From: a virus
Taxonomy: Duplodnaviria; Caudoviricetes
Strand: one strand, 5' to 3'
Virus record (IMG/VR): IMGVR_UViG_3300033075_001021
DNA: 64,000 nt
The notes beneath the pieces were generated by a model. It did not search any database. It saw only the letters and a list, made by a program, of their open reading frames with translations, and was not told the DNA's origin. Positions 44,122 through 56,546 of the stretch are shown in pieces (position 1 is the first letter of the stretch; each line of letters begins with the position of its first letter). The position numbers and the translations under genes are program-made.

Positions 44122-44198
44122 ATCTTAACAATTTTACAAGGTTTATTATACTTTTCACAAAGAGAAATGCTATGTTGTGTTCCACGTGAAATACCATT
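44118..44198 (-). pseudogene. Orphaned 3' end of the SLOG/YspA-like gene
   Basis: NGISRGTQHSISLCEKYNKPCKIVKI* vs DQKSKGTLHSINLAKELKKPIRIITF*. Confidence 0.82.
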
Positions 44199-44767
44199 TA
44201 TTTTATAATATTTTTATCTTTTAAATTAAGATATACTGAGCTAATCCAATGTATAAATTCATCGTGATGGTATTTGTTTTTGATGAAATTACATTTTGAA
44301 CAACATGGAACGACATTATCTAAATAATACCCTTTTTCGTTATCTAATCTGTCAATACCATTAAACTTATAAGGTCCATTTAATTTTTGTTTTTTAAACT
44401 CAAAAATAGGTTCAGTTCCGCAATAATAACAATCGGATTCAAAGATTTTAATCATCTCCTCATCGGTTAGATTAAAACTGATTCCTTTAAATTTTGCATT
44501 ATGCCTATAATTGTAAATCAATGCGTTTCGATTAGCTATTCCAAATGCTTTTCTCCTTTTTGCCCCGTAATCAATTTCTTTTTTTATACAACCACAACTT
44601 TTAGTATGGTTATTAACTACTTTAGATGCTTCTACTATTACTATATTTCCACAATCACATTGACACTTATATTTTTTTCTTTTATAAGAAGCTTTTGGCA
44701 TTACTTCAATAATCAATAATTTATTAAATTTTTTTCCGATTAATTCATCTTTCTTATTTTGTTCCAT
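44198..44767 (-). mobile_element. Free-standing HNH homing endonuclease
   Basis: CQCDCG..TKSCGC N-terminal module; CYYCG..GIDRLDN..GY..NVVPCC..CN..K. Confidence 0.88.
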
Positions 44768-44801
44768 TAGTATTACTTTAATAATAAATATAGCAATGGA
44801 A

Positions 44802-45143
44802 CTAAAAGGTTATAATTCGTATCGGTTTTTTTAATTCTTTAGCTAAATTAATTGAATGTAATGTCCCTTTTGATTTTTGGTCCCAAAATGCAATTACATA
44901 ATCAGCATTTTTGATGATATCTTCATTACGTATAAAGCCAGCTGATTTACCATATTTGTCCCATTCAGGTAGAAAGATAAGAGTATCTATGCCGTGTCTT
45001 TCAGCCCACTGTTCACCCATCTTATCAGCACCTTTGGCACCACCTGACACAACCAATTCGATTTGAAAAATCAATGGGTTCAATGTTTCATTTAATAAAT
45101 CAATGTCATTGAACCCACGACTCCCAATAATGGCTAATTTCAT
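44802..45143 (-). CDS. SLOG-family (YspA/DUF2493-like) protein
   Basis: IIGSRGF, VSGGAKGAD, GKSAGFIRN, AFWD.KSKGT. Confidence 0.85.
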   Translation of the reverse strand: MKLAIIGSRGFNDIDLLNETLNPLIFQIELVVSGGAKGADKMGEQWAERHGIDTLIFLPEWDKYGKSAGFIRNEDIIKNADYVIAFWDQKSKGTLHSINLAKELKKPIRIITF

Positions 45144-45370
45144 TATTTGGTCTTTTTTGATTTTACTGGTTTGCTTTTGGCCAACTTTTCAGCCAAGCCA
45201 TCTTTCATCAAAATCGCAACCAATGTTGAATGCTCTTTTGATTTGTAATAAATGGACTTTTCCCTGCGTCCATTAAAAAATGCCAATTGAGTATCTCTAT
45301 CAATGGCGTACCACAAATCTTCATATGGATTGTACCAGAAGATGTAGTTGTAAAGGTTCATGCTATTCAT
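45143..45370 (-). CDS. Hypothetical protein
   Basis: 75 aa in operon. Confidence 0.55.
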   Translation of the reverse strand: MNSMNLYNYIFWYNPYEDLWYAIDRDTQLAFFNGRREKSIYYKSKEHSTLVAILMKDGLAEKLAKSKPVKSKKTK

Positions 45371-46169: not shown

Positions 46170-48683
46170 ATGAACCGTGAAATTTACCCAAAAGTCAAAA
46201 TTATCATCAATAAGGCAATGCAAGAAGCAAAAAACCTAGATGATATTAAAATAAGACCTGAACACATAACACTATCTATACTAAATGATGATAATGAATG
46301 TGTTGATGCTCTTAGGAATTTAAAAGTTGATACAACAGAAGTAGTGGAGAAAATTATTGACTTTCTTAGAAAGGCCGACTTAACACCAAGAGTATCACAA
46401 AGCAAAAGAGTTAGATTACCATTTTCAGATGAATCGAAAGAAATTATCAAAACTCTTGATAAAGAATGTGAAGCTATGAATGATAAGATGATTAACTTAG
46501 CACATCTTATGTTAGCAATATTAGCACATCGAACACCAGCAACTAAAATATTTTCAGAGTTCGGTGTAACATATAACAGTTTTAAAAAAACAATCATGGA
46601 AGACAACAACATCAAAAATGACAGAATCGACGACGATTTTAATGACGAATTTCCAGAAGAACAAGAACGCTTCAGAAGAATGAAAAAGAAAAACGAATCC
46701 ACCAAAACACCCGTTTTAGATAATTTTTGTCGGGACATTTCTAAAGCTGTTGAAAAAGGAACCATTGACCCTGTCGTTGGTCGTGAAAAAGAAATCAAAC
46801 GCATTTCACAAATCCTTTCAAGAAGAAAGAAAAATAACCCAGTATTGATTGGTGAACCAGGCGTTGGTAAAACATCTATCGTTGAAGGTCTAGCCCAATT
46901 AATTAAAGACGGAAATGCACCAAGAACAATTGCCAATAAAAAAGTTTATAGTTTAGATTTAGCTGCAATTGTTGCTGGTACAAAATATCGTGGACAGTTT
47001 GAAGAAAGGATGAAAGCTATCCTTGAAGAATGTAAAGGAAACCCAGACGTAATCCTTTTTATTGATGAATTACACACTATTATTGGTGCTGGTAACGCTT
47101 CTGGTTCATTGGATGCATCCAATATCTTTAAACCAGCATTAGCACGTGGAGAAATTCAAATCATTGGTGCGACAACCTTGGATGAATATCGTGAACACAT
47201 CGAAAAAGATGGTGCCCTTACCAGAAGGTTTCAACAAGTTCTTGTTGAAGAACCAACACTTGAAGAGACAAAAATCATCTTAAAAAACATCAAAGACAAA
47301 TATGAAAAACACCACAAGGTTCATTATACCGATGAAGCTATTGAAGAGTGTGTTAAATTGTCTGACAGATATATCATGGAACGTTCAATGCCAGATAAAG
47401 CAATTGATGTGTTGGATGAAGCTGGCGCTGCAACAAATGTAAGCCTTGAAAAACCACAATCTGTCAAAGACCTTGAACTTAAAAAAATCGAAATCCTCAA
47501 TAGAAAGAAAGAAGTTATCAGCAAACAAAAATATGAAGAAGCTGCTAAACTAAGGGATGAAGGTGCTAAGATTGATGAACAACTCTCAAACGCACTAAAA
47601 GATTGGAGTGCAAGGCTTGAAAAGAAAGTCACCACTGTTGGTGTTGAACAAATTTCTGAAGTGGTATCAATGATGACTGGTATCCCTCTAACCAAAATTT
47701 CAACCCAAGAAAGCAAACGCTTGATGAACCTTGATAAAGAACTAATGGGTCGGGTTATAGGCCAAGATGACGCTGTTACAAAAGTCGTTAAAGCAATCAA
47801 GAGAAGTCGTATTGGTATCAAAGATAAAAACAAACCCATAGGTTCATTCATTTTCTTAGGTCCAACTGGTGTGGGTAAAACCTATCTTGCAAAACTTCTT
47901 GCCGAACATGTTTTTGGTGATGAAGACGCACTTGTTAGAATCGATATGACTGAGTTCATGGAAAAACATACAATATCAAGATTAATTGGCGCACCTCCAG
48001 GTTATGTTGGTTATGAACAAGCTGGTCAATTGACTGAAAAAATTAGAAGAAAACCACACAGCGTTGTATTGTTTGATGAAATTGAAAAAGCACACGAAGA
48101 TGTTTTCAATATCCTTCTTCAAATAATGGATGAAGGTCACATAACCGATGGCCAAGGTAGAAAAGTAAACTTTAAAAACACTTTAATTATCCTAACCTCA
48201 AACGTCGGTGTTAAAGAACTTAGTCAATTCGGTACAAGTGTAGGTTTCCAAACATCCACTTCTTCAACCAATGAAGATGAAAGGGCAAAAACAATTATTG
48301 AAAAAGCACTCAAGAAAAAGTTTAAACCAGAATTCTTAAACCGTATCGATGAATCAATAATCTTTAACGGACTTAAAATGGAAGACATTCAAAAAATCAT
48401 CCACAAAGAAATTGAGAAACTTGAAGCGCGTATTGGTGAAGTTGGTTACAAAATTAAATTGAATAAAGCCGCTATTGAATTCTTAGCCAAAGAAGGTTAC
48501 GATGAAGAGTATGGCGCTAGACCATTGGCAAGAACCATTCAACGTTATGTCGAGGACCCCGTCGCCGACGAAATACTAAGCGGAAATGTTAAAGATGGCG
48601 ATGTAATCAAAATCATCTTTGATAAGACCAAAAATGAGATTGTCGTCAAATCAGATAAGACAGCCAAAGTCGAAGAAGAATAA
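46170..48683 (+). CDS. clpC: ClpC-like Hsp100 AAA+ ATPase
   Basis: Clp N-domain; GEPGVGKT and GPTGVGKT; UVR-like YEEAAKLRD; GYVG pore loop; VGF loop. Confidence 0.9.
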
Positions 48684-48726: not shown

Positions 48727-49128
48727 ATGAAAGCCACAATAAAAAAATTGTTAAATGAGCGATTATTGGATAAACATTCAGAAGAACAAGTTGCTCTTTT
48801 AAATGAATTTGTTGGATTTGCTGCCGATTTTTTGGGTATCAAAAAACCTAAAATAGTCTTACAATACGGACGTGATGGGTTAACAACTACCGCCGCTTAT
48901 GTTGACGGTAAAATACATGTATATGCAAAAGAAAGGGCGATTGTTGATATTATGAGGTCTATAGCCCATGAGATGACACATCTTAAACAAGACGTTGAAA
49001 AACGCTTAGAAAAGAAGGACCATATTAAAAATAATGCGGCTGGTTCACCAATAGAAAATGAAGCAAATGCCAAGGCTGGGGAAATAATGAGAAAATTTGG
49101 TGAAAATCACCCAGAAATATACATCTAA
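48727..49128 (+). CDS. HEXXH zinc-peptidase-like protein
   Basis: RSIAHEMTH..E.EAN. Confidence 0.7.
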   Translation: MKATIKKLLNERLLDKHSEEQVALLNEFVGFAADFLGIKKPKIVLQYGRDGLTTTAAYVDGKIHVYAKERAIVDIMRSIAHEMTHLKQDVEKRLEKKDHIKNNAAGSPIENEANAKAGEIMRKFGENHPEIYI

Positions 49129-50000
49129 TGAAAGAAGCGTTATTACAGAAAGCAAAAGAACTGGTTAACACAAGACCAATCAAAGGATATTCGGCTAAAC
49201 CACTTAAGGATGCTGCCAATACCGATATGACGTTATTTGCTCAGTATCTTTTAAACATTGCGGAACAAGCTATGGACCCAGCAAGCTTAAAAGCAACCAT
49301 TGAAACTTATACCAAAGATTTAGTTGACATAGCACGATTATTTGCTAAGGAAAATCATGCGCTTAATGAGGAAAAAATAAAGGGTGGTAAAGCAGATAAT
49401 TTATCAATTGATGATATCGCAAAAAAGTTTGACATCAATCCATCTAAAATTAGAAAAGAATTAGTCATGGGGGTGGAAGTTGAATTAGAACATACAGATA
49501 GCAGAACAACGGCCAAGGAAATTGCAATGGACCATTTATCTGAAATTCCAGATTATTACACCAGATTAAAAAAGATGGAAAAAGACGGAAGTAAGAAATG
49601 GACAACAGAATCAACTGTATTAATTAAGAAATTATTACATGAGGGGTTAAAATACAACGCCGCATCAACTTTGCTACTTGACTTTGGTTTTTTAATTTCA
49701 AATAATTTTAGTCAAATAACAAAAATGGGTAAAGATGCAACAGCAACCAAAGAATTAAATCTTATGATGCAGAACCTAAGAAAACCAATCATAAACGGTC
49801 AAAACTATTTTGAAATCACTAAAGATGTTAATTCAGTAATAAGAAATCCAAAAATGTTATCAGCTGTTCTAGGAAAAATAAGAGAGTTTTTAATATATAT
49901 TGAACCTAGAATACAAAAATTTGTTATTGATAATGAATTTAAAAAACATTGGTTGGAAAAAATCAATGGATTAAAATCCCTATATAGAAGTATAATTTAA
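49128..50000 (+). CDS. Multi-module protein containing a DUF5661-like segment
   Basis: GVEVELEHT..AKEIAMDHL.E.PDYYTRL. Confidence 0.65.
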   Translation: MKEALLQKAKELVNTRPIKGYSAKPLKDAANTDMTLFAQYLLNIAEQAMDPASLKATIETYTKDLVDIARLFAKENHALNEEKIKGGKADNLSIDDIAKKFDINPSKIRKELVMGVEVELEHTDSRTTAKEIAMDHLSEIPDYYTRLKKMEKDGSKKWTTESTVLIKKLLHEGLKYNAASTLLLDFGFLISNNFSQITKMGKDATATKELNLMMQNLRKPIINGQNYFEITKDVNSVIRNPKMLSAVLGKIREFLIYIEPRIQKFVIDNEFKKHWLEKINGLKSLYRSII

Positions 50001-50153
50001 ACCAATATATTCGTGACTAAAACATATACGTTTGTTATCAGCATAATGAGCATTGTAAACATTTTTATGTGTCACATCCTTTCTTAATTTTTTATTCTTG
50101 CTTGTTGGTTTCCATAAAGGCGAATGTTCACGGTAATAACCCATACGTGGATG
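49980..50153 (-). pseudogene. Orphaned 3' end of the GNAT gene
   Basis: 40/51 aa identical to the region starting HPRM in 50884..51045; no start codon. Confidence 0.92.
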
Positions 50154-50193
50154 CTTTTACTACTTTTCCACATATTTATTAATAAATTGCAAT

Positions 50194-50910
50194 ATGCCGA
50201 GAAGATTAACAACGCAACAATTCATTGAAAGGGCCAATAAAATTCATAATAACAAGTACGACTATTCAAAAACTAAATTTGTTAATAGTAAAACTAAAGT
50301 TATTATTATTTGCCCAATACATGGGGAATTTGAACAGTTTCATAACAAACATCTATCTAAAAAGGGATGCCCAAAATGCGGTTTTATATCAAGATGTAAC
50401 TTAGCAAGAAGTACTTCACATGATTTTATTACCAAAGCGATAAAAATTCATGGTGATAAATATAATTACGATAATGTTATTTATACAGGTAAAGAAAATA
50501 AAGTAACAATAATTTGTGAAAAACACGGAAGCTTTAATCAAACACCACATAATCATTTAGCTGGAAATGGTTGCCCACATTGTAGAGAATCAAAAGGTGA
50601 ACGTGAAATAAAACAATTTTTAATTGAAAATAATATTAAGTTTATACCACAAAAAAGGTTTAAAGATTGTCGTCACATATTACCACTACCTTTTGATTTC
50701 TATCTTCCTGAATATAATATGTGTATTGAATATCATGGTATACAACATTTTAAACCGAGAAGTAAATTTGGTGGTGAAATTGAATTTAAGAAAGTTGTTT
50801 TAAGAGATAAAATAAAAGTTGAATATTGTATAAAAAATAAAATAAAACTTAATATCATAAAATATAATGACAATCTTTTAGAATTACTTACATCCTATGT
50901 ACTCAAATGA
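50194..50910 (+). mobile_element. Homing endonuclease, DUF723-like zinc repeats plus EDxHD/Vsr-like nuclease
   Basis: Two IH..KY.Y..IIC..HG.F.Q..HL..GCP.C repeats; SKGE; LPFDFYLP..IEYHG.QH. Confidence 0.85.
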
Positions 50911-51363
50911 ACCACAAACCCTTTTATTATCTCCATAGTGATTGTTATAAATATTTTTATGTGTTATGTCTGTTCTTAATTTCTTATGTTTACTAGTTGG
51001 TTTCCACAAAGGTGAGTGTTCTCTATACCAAATCATGCGTGGGTGGGCCGTTCTAGAAAAGTAACGTAACCCCTGTTCTAAGTGAATCTGACCTATTGCA
51101 TCAGAAAACCTTACCCCAATACCCATTCCTTGAAAATCTGGCAAAATAACGGTCCTATGACCCCTCCAAGCGTTTTTCATGTTACCATTAGGTAAAGCAA
51201 GACTGGCACAAAACGCAACAACCTCATCATTCCAAACACCAACATAACATCTTGCGGCCTTATTGATATCTCCACTCAAATAATGATGGTCTTTAAACAT
51301 GGGCCAGATATGATGGCTTGCTGGATAAATCTCAATTTTGATTTCTGGACGGGCAAAAAAAAA
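50884..51363 (-). CDS. GNAT acetyltransferase domain, -1 frame continuation of the ABC ATPase
   Basis: RPEIKIEIY..W.MFKDHHYL; RTVILPDFQGMGIG. Confidence 0.8.
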   Translation of the reverse strand, partial: FFFARPEIKIEIYPASHHIWPMFKDHHYLSGDINKAARCYVGVWNDEVVAFCASLALPNGNMKNAWRGHRTVILPDFQGMGIGVRFSDAIGQIHLEQGLRYFSRTAHPRMIWYREHSPLWKPTSKHKKLRTDITHKNIYNNHYGDNKRVCGSFEYIGCK

Positions 51364-51953
51364 CCTTGGTGAAATTCACCAGTATCAGTGTCAATAACCC
51401 AATCTGGTTCCAACCATTCTAAGATATCACGATGACAAGTTGCTAATACAACATTATTGATATCGTTGTTTTTAATGTAACGTGATAATGATACACTAGC
51501 AGCCTTAGCAACGTTTCTATCAACGACACTACTAAATTCATCAATTACAGCATTTGATTCTAATTTACGAGCAACATCAGCCCTAAACTTTTCACCATTA
51601 GATAATACCTCGTATGGCTTATACCAAGAAGGAATCGTATTTAAACCGACAGCGCCCATTTTATTGATGGCTTCATCTGGTGATTCAAAATGTGAAATGA
51701 TTGGCAAATGATTGGACCAGATTGGTTTTTCTTCTTGACCAAAGTTTTTTAATAACGTTGATTTACCAGAACCACTTGAACCAACAATTACGCCTATCTT
51801 AAATTCTTTTGGGAGATTGATAGGAAGTTCCCATGGATAAAACTTTGACGTACCATCAAAAATACAATCAAAGGCTTTCTCACTAGCCTCAATAAATTTG
51901 TCTTTCTGGACAGTAGATGTTAAAGGAATGTTTGATTTGATGAGTTTTTCCAT
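51276..51953 (-). CDS. ABC-type ATPase domain
   Basis: GSSGSGKST, LSNGEKFR, IDEFSSVVDR, TCH. Confidence 0.87.
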   Translation of the reverse strand: MEKLIKSNIPLTSTVQKDKFIEASEKAFDCIFDGTSKFYPWELPINLPKEFKIGVIVGSSGSGKSTLLKNFGQEEKPIWSNHLPIISHFESPDEAINKMGAVGLNTIPSWYKPYEVLSNGEKFRADVARKLESNAVIDEFSSVVDRNVAKAASVSLSRYIKNNDINNVVLATCHRDILEWLEPDWVIDTDTGEFHQGFFLPVQKSKLRFIQQAIISGPCLKTIII

Positions 51954-52064
51954 GCAAATAATATATGCATGAATTGTAAAAAAATAAATGGTAAGTATGG
52001 AAAATACAAAGCTAGAGCGCATATTTCTTACGCTCTAGCCCATATTTTGTTCATCCAGAATGGA

Positions 52065-52349: not shown

Positions 52350-52394
52350 TTAATGAGCGTATTTGTCACCACCATAGCTTGCTGCCCAAGCATC
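52350..52394 (-). pseudogene. Orphaned 3' end of the YkuK-like gene
   Basis: DAWAASYGGDKYAH* vs ESWAASYGGDRYCH*. Confidence 0.88.
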
Positions 52395-53160
52395 ACCTAA
52401 ATTTACAATTTTCAAAATGCCATCGCTTACCGTTTCCGATATCAACAACTTTATTACAGTATGGACATCTTGTTTTTGGTTGTTCTTTACCTTTATTATG
52501 TGCTTCCTTTCCTTTATTTGGATGTACATTTAAACGATAATATTCTTTTAATTTTTCAGATTGAATTTTATTTAATTCTGGGTTATTTTGTCTAATTTTC
52601 TTTTGTGTTTGCGATATTCTTTTCTTTTCTTCTTCTGATTTCGGCCCTGTTGAAACACCCTTATTCCACGCAGTTTGTTTTCCCTTAACACCTTTATTCC
52701 AAGGCACCCTACCCACAGATGGATGTTTAGTTTTTTTATACTTTTCTTTTAATGATATAGATATTTTTTGTTTTATTTCATTTGTTGGTGTATATGGTTT
52801 ACCATGATATATGACTTCACCGTTTTTATACCGTTCTTTTAATGTTTCTGAAATTTTAGTTTTAGAATCTTTTGATAATATACCATTACTCTGACCCCCA
52901 GTTTTTAGATTGTAGGTATCCTCACGATTAACCCAATTTTCGGTTACATATTCTTTTTCTTCCTGAAGTAATTCTTCTAATGAATTACAATATTTTAATA
53001 TTTCACGTTTAAAATTTTCCTTTCCGTATTTTTTTAACGCTCTTTTAAAAGCTAATCCGCTACCTAAATACCCGTCATCCAAGTTTTTAGTTTGATGAAT
53101 TCCAATGTAAACCTTATTGTTAATTAAGTTAGTCGTCTTGTACAAAATAAAATACTGCAT
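52393..53160 (-). mobile_element. Free-standing GIY-YIG (Seg-like) homing endonuclease
   Basis: ILYKTTNLINNKVYIGIH, YLGSG, YN; NUMOD3-like K.KIS and WNKG repeats. Confidence 0.9.
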
Positions 53161-53212
53161 ACTATTATTTTTAATAATAAATATGCAGCATCTTATAATG
53201 AGGATAAAAAAA

Positions 53213-53722
53213 TTAATGACAGTAACGGTCTCCCCCATATGAGGCGGCCCAACTTTCGGGCTTAATTTTGAACTCATATCCCATACCAAGTATGTAACCA
53301 ACAGCGTGGCTAAGAGCCTTGTTAGACTCCCACCTTGGGTCTGGATTAATGTCGGCGTGTATTTCCATCTTAACACCGTACTTTTCAAGGACAGGAGAAA
53401 TTTCGTATGCTACTTCAATAGACTTACCTACTTCCATAATCATTCTTTCATTAACACCTTCCTTGTCCTTCTTGAAGGTATTCATGTGGTAAGTAGCAGA
53501 GATTATCTTACCACCTCTACCCACAGATACACCATCGCCAAGATTCTCCCTAACAGTAATCAATATTACTGTCGCAAACTTATATCCTCTACCACTCCTT
53601 TGAGAGTCAGTACCTACGGAAATCCTTAATTCATGATTAAGGGCCATTTCTTCTTGAATCAAGTTGTCAAGATAATCGTTAATTGGCATGTCAATTTTTT
53701 TGCCAGCTCTTTCCCACTTCAT
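53213..53722 (-). CDS. RNase H-like YkuK-family protein
   Basis: VGTDSQ, EVGKS, EIHADIN, KP.SWAAS..D. Confidence 0.82.
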   Translation of the reverse strand: MKWERAGKKIDMPINDYLDNLIQEEMALNHELRISVGTDSQRSGRGYKFATVILITVRENLGDGVSVGRGGKIISATYHMNTFKKDKEGVNERMIMEVGKSIEVAYEISPVLEKYGVKMEIHADINPDPRWESNKALSHAVGYILGMGYEFKIKPESWAASYGGDRYCH

Positions 53723-55437: not shown

Positions 55438-55779
55438 TTACATGAATCTTTTAAAGAAATCCTCATCCAAATATTCCTCAACTCTTTTTAAAAGAAATGT
55501 TACTAAAAAACTTAATTCGTCTTGGTTGTATCTAGACGCAATTTCTAGAAGTAAATAATTCGGGTCTTCCCCATCAGTCAAGCGATATTTTATCTCTTCA
55601 AAGTATTTACCATTATCTATTTGAAACAATTCTTTTATTATCAAATTATATGTTTCCCATCTTTCCTCTGTTTCCTCATTCATCTCAACCAATAAATTAT
55701 TGATTAATTTATTATACGCTTTATCTAAATTTGAGTTCTTACCTGACCCAGATTTTACAATGAAATCTATAAACGCCAT
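55438..55779 (-). CDS. Hypothetical protein, paralog of 55886..56206
   Basis: W.TYN.II.EL..Y.LTD..DPN. Confidence 0.7.
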   Translation of the reverse strand: MAFIDFIVKSGSGKNSNLDKAYNKLINNLLVEMNEETEERWETYNLIIKELFQIDNGKYFEEIKYRLTDGEDPNYLLLEIASRYNQDELSFLVTFLLKRVEEYLDEDFFKRFM

Positions 55780-55811
55780 ACGAATGTTTTTTAATAAATG
55801 TTATGATATTA

Positions 55812-55885: not shown

Positions 55886-56206
55886 TTAAAAGTTTTTTAT
55901 TTTTTCGTAAAGCCTTTGTAACTCTGGTGAACGATGTTTCACCTTTCTTAGAACCTCAATACACGCTTTGTTTGGGTCTAAATTATCTGTAAGTTTATAT
56001 TGTAATTCTTTTACTCTTAAATTATCTTTGATTGAATGCTTAAGCTCTAAAATAACTTGATTATACGTTATCCAAGCTTTCTTATCGGTTAAATTTCCAT
56101 CAGCCAGAGAATCGGTCACCTTATCTTCGTAAATGTGTTCCAAATGCGTTTCAAACTCACCATACTGAGATTTCAACGCTTCTCTTATTTTGGCTTTAAT
56201 GTCCAT
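55886..56206 (-). CDS. Hypothetical protein, paralog of 55438..55779
   Basis: WITYNQVILEL..YKLTDNLDPN. Confidence 0.7.
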   Translation of the reverse strand: MDIKAKIREALKSQYGEFETHLEHIYEDKVTDSLADGNLTDKKAWITYNQVILELKHSIKDNLRVKELQYKLTDNLDPNKACIEVLRKVKHRSPELQRLYEKIKNF

Positions 56207-56207
56207 A

Positions 56208-56546
56208 CTAATTCATTGATACATTCCTCGATAATTGATTACCTTTTAGTGTGCCAAACGCCCAATCTTTAATAACTTGTTGCGTAAAATCATCACTAGT
56301 GCCGTATTTCTTTTTCATGTATTCAAACAATTCCCCAGCACTTATTTGATTTCCGTCAACCACAACCTCAAACATCGGAACATCACGATATTCACCATCT
56401 TCACGTATAGCAGCAACCATTGGTTTGTAATTCTTTGACAAATCATTAACCATGGTTTTAACCATATTTTCATAAACAGAGTTTTCATTAAGATGCTCTC
56501 TTAATAAATTAAACTGCCTTTCTGTTATAATCATTTTAACACCCAT
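56208..56546 (-). CDS. Hypothetical protein
   Basis: KMIITERQF N-terminus; TATTTAT upstream. Confidence 0.65.
   Translation of the reverse strand: MGVKMIITERQFNLLREHLNENSVYENMVKTMVNDLSKNYKPMVAAIREDGEYRDVPMFEVVVDGNQISAGELFEYMKKKYGTSDDFTQQVIKDWAFGTLKGNQLSRNVSMN

Follow-up and report, generated by a model that had tools for sequence, protein, structure and literature searches.

A candidate homing-endonuclease cassette that carries a substitute gene end within the ATPase–GNAT gene of a T4-like phage

In fungal mitochondria, elements called mORFs insert a foreign C-terminus in phase into a gene and displace the native one, as described for atp6 of Allomyces macrogynus and for atp6, atp9, cox2 and nad3 of Glomus sp. 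(PMC3630166). In T4, free-standing endonucleases of the seg and mob groups carry out intronless homing, mobE splits nrdA in Aeromonas phage Aeh1, and one-sided illegitimate repair of breaks has been documented in T4 itself (PMC2988022). The EDxHD family of endonucleases includes I-Bth0305I of Bacillus phage 0305phi8-36 (PDB 3R3P) and the free-standing Hef of T4-related phages (PMC3239194). Here we describe a locus that resembles each of these systems in part: the 892-nucleotide (nt) segment at positions 50154–51045 of a 64,000-nt stretch of viral DNA (IMG/VR record IMGVR_UViG_3300033075_001021; Duplodnaviria, Caudoviricetes), which we call the window. We hold, with a probability of roughly three in four, that this segment is a homing-endonuclease cassette inside the 3' end of a phage ATPase–GNAT gene, made up of three parts: an endonuclease gene of the EDxHD/Vsr type that is free-standing and lies on the opposite strand, a 5' spacer that is short and conserved, and its own copy of the last 51–53 codons of the host gene. 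A selfish endonuclease would then have a third way of residing inside coding sequence, besides introns and inteins, namely to carry a substitute for the piece of the gene that it severs. Our literature searches turned up no phage in which a replaced gene end has been described; the precedent that we did find is the mitochondrial one. Barth et al. 2023 (PMC10448857) mention duplications only in the screening of defective homing-endonuclease coding sequences and as repeats inside endonuclease genes.

The window derives from a large AT-rich T4-like phage, with a T4-type portal, a gp23-type capsid protein and a T4-type large terminase. The host gene lies on its minus strand. The resident part (51046–51953, likely start ATG at 51953) encodes an ABC-type P-loop ATPase and the first two thirds of a GNAT acetyltransferase, and the frame is continuous from the GNAT core into a C-terminal segment of 53 codons and a stop (50884–51045, stop at 50884–50886), in which all invariant and near-invariant tail residues are kept. 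The nuclease gene (50194–50910, plus strand, 238 residues) is antisense to the host gene and overlaps the GNAT stop. Its last 8 codons and stop are the codon-for-codon reverse complement of the last 8 codons and stop of the in-frame tail, an overlap of 27 nt. On the other side of the nuclease, a 40-nt spacer (50154–50193) separates its start codon from a second GNAT C-terminus, again on the minus strand, which we call the orphan (49980–50153). The orphan comprises 51 homologous codons (50001–50153), six last codons of its own and a stop at 49980–49982, and it has neither a start nor an upstream coding partner. A convergent DUF5661 gene (49128–50000, plus strand; Pfam PF18905, E 1.3e-16) follows, with its stop inside the orphan's last codons. 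An earlier description of the locus, made by a model from the letters of the window and here called the original prediction, had reported an alternative GNAT end, free of stops and flanking an antisense nuclease. Both peptides that it quoted are present where it had placed them, no internal stop occurs in the 58 codons of the orphan, and the gene between the copies is a nuclease by Pfam, PHROGs and structural match.

The two tails are alike as proteins and much less so as DNA. They share 40 of 51 residues (78.4%), the figure that had been given before and that tblastn returns with an E-value of about 1e-24 within the window, and are 69% identical in nucleotides. They form a direct DNA repeat (50022–50153 and 50914–51045, offset 892 nt) in which the longest identical run is 12 nt. 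The original prediction had proposed a comparison of substitutions between the copies. Comparison of the 51 codons in register gives 18 identical ones, 22 with synonymous differences alone and 11 that encode another amino acid, for a synonymous divergence (pS) of 0.94 and a nonsynonymous divergence (pN) of 0.17. Saturated synonymous sites combined with preserved amino acids indicate that both copies have a long history as functional gene ends, in different genomes. The substitution pattern thus shows that two old, separately selected alleles have been brought together, rather than that one end was recently duplicated. The "recent event" that had been proposed therefore does not hold for the duplication, and the cassette is moreover shared by 12 diverged metagenomic lineages whose nucleases can be as little as 60% identical. 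It may hold for the stranding of this particular orphan, which could be recent because the orphan is still intact.

Which end is resident can be read from relatives, for which we used 58 related loci from viral contigs and further loci reached through the nuclease protein (L numbers below). The nuclease is absent from most of them, and there the GNAT tail abuts the convergent DUF5661 gene, its last codons overlapping the DUF5661 stop. In the window it is the orphan that makes this overlap, matching nuclease-free L040, L006 and L010, and its end reads GLNYTSI-stop as compared with GLNDRLI-stop in L040. Tails can be sorted into type II (G5, N20, F/Y46, H48) and type I (I/V5, H20, G46, F48). The window's orphan (G5, N20, F46, H48) is type II, as are all orphans; its in-frame tail (I5, W6, H20, G46, F48) is type I, as are all tails joined to this nuclease. 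Distant relatives in which ATPase and GNAT form one open reading frame (ORF) are without exception type II, which marks type II as ancestral. A tree built from the 153-nt tails places those linked to the nuclease in one clade, whatever their backbone (88/84, core 99/93), and all orphans beyond a 93/93 split, together with nuclease-free alleles. Only 6 nucleotide differences are fixed between nuclease-linked tails and nuclease-free type II tails, all of them in codons 5, 20, 46 and 48. A strict coupling of the type I residues was considered and rejected, given the intermediate alleles L024, L028 and L033, which have N20 together with G46 and F48. The orphan thus groups with nuclease-free alleles, carries the ancestral residues and keeps the native overlap with the DUF5661 stop. 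It is the resident end, now displaced, and the in-frame tail is the imported one.

This arrangement closely parallels that of the mitochondrial mORFs (PMC3630166). In both cases, an endonuclease ORF lies inside the 3' part of a working gene and a gene hybrid is formed, with a C-terminus joined in phase and the native end displaced. In both, too, the native copy is nearer to the tails of relatives than the inserted copy is, and the copies resemble each other more as proteins than as DNA (64–81% nucleotide identity in mitochondria, 69% here). The analogy is not complete. First, the host is a T4-like phage and not an organelle, and the endonuclease is of the EDxHD/Vsr type. Second, the nuclease here lies on the opposite strand, in antisense overlap with the imported tail, whereas two of the four Glomus mORFs (atp6 and nad3) are in phase with the host gene. 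Finally, the phage locus is known from a population of 12 lineages that includes a nested double invasion and a hybrid tail.

The nuclease itself combines a familiar catalytic domain with an unusual N-terminus. Pfam assigns DUF723 and DUF4379 to the 238-residue protein, that is, two DUF723/treble-clef zinc modules, both N-terminal, and its PHROG matches (phrog_559 and phrog_9084) call it an endonuclease. The family is very large, with more than 7,900 matches among 8,000 scored candidates, some of which are named very-short-patch-repair endonuclease in their sources. Across 40 homologues, D168 and D205 are invariant, and E136 and H185 are each at least 90% conserved. In the predicted model (mean confidence score, pLDDT, of 90.8), residues 132–238 superimpose on Vsr (1cw0_A; Z 10.9, root-mean-square deviation 2.4, 100 residues aligned) and on the catalytic domain of I-Bth0305I (3r3p_A; Z 10.7, root-mean-square deviation 2.7, 89 aligned of 97 residues). 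The same two structures are the top specific Foldseek matches, with weak E-values of 0.016–0.05, and phmmer against PDB sequences gave no match. The D-to-H spacing of 17 equals that of D196–H213 in I-Bth0305I, a residue correspondence that rests on spacing and fold. Judged by this model, the protein belongs to the EDxHD (Vsr-like) family as a distinct architecture within it. Like I-Bth0305I, it is phage-borne and has a DNA-binding N-terminus and a C-terminal catalytic domain of Vsr fold with conserved acidic and histidine residues. Unlike I-Bth0305I, which resides in a group I intron and has NUMOD/helix-turn-helix modules, it is free-standing, and DUF723/DUF4379 treble-clef modules take the place of a NUMOD-type DNA-binding region. 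Its pN/pS of 0.18–0.50 among lineages indicates that it is maintained by purifying selection. It is probably expressed by read-through from a neighboring gene on its own strand. A sigma-70 consensus scan found fewer promoter-like sites than in shuffled sequences, a result with no bearing on the nuclease's expression.

The boundary of the cassette is shared to the base. In an alignment of the 12 lineages the 40-nt spacer is conserved and holds an AT-rich near-palindrome, ATATTTATTAATAAAT, which reads AATAAATA on the minus strand; this motif is kept in every cassette lineage and could, putatively, serve as a promoter. The spacer ends in ...TAAAAG, after which gene homology restarts with CAYCCNCGNATGGG. 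The junction ...TAAAAG|CAYCC falls at the same base in the window, L002/3, L005, L015, L063–67, L068, L069–74, L197, L198 and L199. Orphans are complete in 8 of the lineages that share it and open in all 8; 2 more are open up to the contig end. The tail–nuclease–orphan order recurs in contigs assembled independently from many samples by different pipelines (ENA, JGI, NCBI and Logan). Two lineages have an intact nuclease and no full orphan: L200 retains a relic of about 20 nt with a CGA to TGA change, and L004 has none. Such a layout, a type I tail and nuclease without the orphan, could be either the source arrangement or the product of later deletion. A scan of viral contigs for the junction pattern returned only the four loci already known, and a metagenome scan gave, among the matches listed, one true locus that was already known (L120 = L003), the rest being chance matches.

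In a tree of the 900 nt upstream, which represents the backbone, cassette carriers are scattered, and at least four gains or losses are needed to account for them. In this respect, the element is comparable to the seg and mob endonucleases: the host is T4-like, a free-standing endonuclease gene sits beside or inside a conserved gene, its occurrence among relatives is patchy, and spread by break repair during co-infection is expected. It differs in that classical seg and mob genes occupy intergenic positions or divide a gene into two polypeptides, whereas here the host gene is neither split nor spliced, a substitute end being supplied instead.

From the common junction, the scattered carriers on the backbone tree and the fact that between the window and L063 the nuclease is more alike than its flanks, we infer that the cassette moves by cleavage. 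The endonuclease would target type II alleles that lack the nuclease and cut them close to, or exactly at, the HPRM|G junction, and the break would be repaired from a cassette-bearing phage during co-infection, so that type I tail, nuclease and spacer are copied in. The foreign tail would be joined in frame at the HPRM codons, leaving the acetyltransferase whole, while the recipient's own tail would be pushed downstream and left untranslated as the orphan. A carrier would be protected in two ways: its target is interrupted by the insertion, and just past the junction the imported tail reads ATG-ATT-TGG where type II alleles have ATG-GGN-TAY. The first insertion would probably have been a one-sided illegitimate break repair from a phage in which the nuclease lay downstream of a type I tail.

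Several observations weigh against such mobility or its frequency. Presence/absence polymorphism was sought among contigs with an identical ATPase protein, and only carriers were found. The more alike two backbones are, the more alike are their nucleases (Mantel r 0.69, p 0.002), so that much of the history may be vertical descent with losses and not frequent transfer; the corresponding tests of orphans against backbone or nuclease (r 0.05–0.32, p >0.1) involve segments that are too short. Nuclease-free type I tails exist (L001, L006 and L009) and can be read either as the source lineage or as loss of the nuclease. Finally, orphan-to-orphan pN/pS is about 0.17, like that of functional tails (0.21–0.25), with synonymous sites near saturation, and ten open orphans at this ratio would be unlike neutral debris if the cassette were old and mostly vertical.

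The last of these points leads to an explanation that we regard as unlikely but that survives better than the others, in which the orphan is kept by selection. It could act as a downstream homology arm for homing, or it could be expressed, possibly driven by AATAAATA, as a 54-residue peptide starting at the M of HPRM. The stranded end would then be a working part of the element, either a portable right-hand arm or a product, and I5, H20, G46 and F48 would mark a co-adapted, cleavage-immune allele that spreads by hitchhiking in phage populations. The openness of all 8 complete and 2 partial orphans, their low pN/pS, the conservation of the spacer motif in every lineage and the long residence implied by a nuclease tree that tracks the backbone are all in keeping with it. 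An essential role is nevertheless hard to reconcile with L200 and L004, in which the nuclease remains intact without an orphan. Moreover, no ribosome-binding site is evident for the orphan, and a few orphans have lost a residue that is otherwise nearly invariant, an S being replaced by H in L005 and an S by A in L068. The low pN/pS, in turn, is explained without selection on the orphan if each homing event renews it from a functional allele. We favor this account, frequent renewal as the cassette moves among close relatives. Were the doubtful alternative to prove correct, phage endonuclease cassettes would be three-part mobile units, consisting of a spare end, a nuclease and a landing arm.

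It is very improbable that the polarity is reversed, with a native in-frame tail and an orphan that derives from the gene of an earlier host, carried in by the nuclease and deposited past the stop codon. Free-standing phage endonucleases do co-convert flanking DNA (PMC2988022), and one of the nuclease-free loci with a type I tail, L001, is the nearest backbone relative of the window. But it is the orphan, and not the in-frame tail, that continues into the resident DUF5661 gene with the native stop overlap. The in-frame tail is instead interlocked with the nuclease ORF and groups with nuclease-linked tails on unrelated backbones, and L004 has a backbone of the type II clade, yet a type I tail and the nuclease. 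A tandem duplication of the 3' end of the gene within this genome, with the nuclease landing later between copies that diverged in place, merits still less credence. The copies are indeed direct repeats 892 nt apart, as it predicts, but both the substitutions and the tree of alleles refute it: with pS 0.94 and pN 0.17 both copies evolved as working ends, which is impossible side by side in one genome, and they belong to two allele classes that are each present in other genomes. An assembly artefact joining two strains with different tails, the strain chimera that the original prediction had itself raised and that an uncultured source might invite, has next to no standing, being excluded by the recurrence of the same order in independent assemblies, and the identical runs between the copies (at most 12 nt) are too short to mislead an assembler.

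The cassette is also seen in more complex states among relatives. A second related nuclease, about 50% identical to the first, is associated with a duplication that starts 33 codons further upstream (L007). In L015 (5001–7548), and independently in L196 from another sample, this second nuclease lies inside an allele that already had the first cassette. There the gene is followed by nuclease b and a stranded partial gene that ends in a type I tail, then by nuclease a and a stranded tail of type II, for a total of three tail copies. This layout is the record of two successive invasions with different insertion points. Cassettes can therefore stack, leaving a readable account of successive invasions, and the 12 lineages, being at different stages, make a good system for studying how fast such scars decay and whether they are reused.

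Exchange between copies and between carriers leaves traces as well. In L063, the middle of the in-frame tail is 87–90% identical to that genome's own orphan, while both ends and codon 20 stay cassette-type (L063:3866–4907, in reverse-complement, GNAT-sense coordinates); L064–L067 show the same. The mosaic suggests conversion between the copies with retention of the four type I residues. Recombination between the copies had been predicted to produce hybrid tails or to excise the element; the former is borne out in this relative, and the latter is not, the longest identical run in the window being only 12 nt. Between the window and L063 the nuclease body is 90–95% identical and the flanks 73–87%, the identity changing near codon 45 of the tail on one side and some 50 nt within the 5' end of the nuclease on the other, a pattern that points to ongoing recombination among cassette carriers.

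Public gene callers annotate most of the orphan tails in L063–L074 and L195–L198 as genes of 50–56 amino acids, since these begin with the M of HPRM. Orphan tails are thus a source of spurious small ORFs in phage annotation.

The segment that is exchanged belongs to the body of the host protein. Pfam identifies ABC_tran, Acetyltransf_1 (21.2 bits against a cut-off of 20.7) and Acetyltransf_7 in the host gene, and one family, phrog_11143, spans the ATPase and GNAT ORFs. In the GNAT alignment, the columns Q80-G81-x-G83-x-G85, corresponding to the Q/R-x-x-G-x-G/A acetyl-CoA loop, are invariant. The predicted model of the GNAT part (pLDDT 86) forms a complete GNAT fold over all 161 residues, tail included, and Foldseek with this model gave 237 PDB matches (E up to 0.001), the top ones being GNAT enzymes with about 165 columns covered. 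In the model the swapped segment begins with a helix at HPRM, continues as a basic loop of poor order and ends in the final strand (CGSFEY); codon 5 would lie in the helix, codon 20 just past the next short strand, and codons 46 and 48 in the final strand. The cassette would thus swap an integral third of the GNAT domain, not an appendage, and foreign protein segments, here the last third of a GNAT fold, would have been moved between phage lineages.

The ATPase and GNAT portions are joined in an unusual manner. On the minus strand, an ABC-type P-loop ORF (51276–52022) runs into the GNAT ORF (50884–51300, open upstream to 51369), and the two frames meet at a run of nine T residues (51355–51363, minus strand; nine A residues on the plus strand), where joining them needs one extra base or a -1 slip. 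The context of this run, GGTTTTTTTTTG, is conserved in about 35 distinct relatives that are otherwise synonymously saturated, and a small hairpin (51367–51381) lies just upstream of it. In a variant with ten T residues (L024/L026) and in distant relatives, ATPase and GNAT are in frame. The run looks like a site of programmed slippage, either transcriptional or -1 ribosomal, that would yield the fused protein.

A blastn search of 50,697 phage records with a 5.1-kb query matched at the nuclease gene only, at 64–74% identity over no more than 10% of the query, and no close cultured relative of the window was found among these records. The ClpB-like gene beside the locus has weak intein-splicing Pfam matches in some relatives (L069:130–1476 and L195:1–784), and the window's copy (46170–48683) is an uninterrupted ORF of 837 residues; this gene may represent a further mobile-element polymorphism nearby.

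The orphan had been described as the longest such end in the window, which is correct among detectable ones; a self-search of the window gave only shorter copies, each next to another endonuclease gene, of 21 residues (44127–44189) and 14 residues (52353–52394). The 14-residue copy, 71% identical, repeats the end of an RNase H-like gene (53213–53722), from which a GIY-YIG endonuclease gene (52393–53388, minus strand) separates it, and L063–L074 lack this endonuclease at the corresponding place. By its layout, 52353–53388 is a second, shorter case of the same arrangement. The 21-residue copy is a weak one (48% identical) of the end of ORF 44802–45143, located beyond ORF 44198–44767, and 44127–45188 is a possible third case near the detection limit. 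Elsewhere in the window, two adjacent minus-strand ORFs, 55441–55800 and 55889–56212, are 32% identical over 81 residues and are tandem paralogues.

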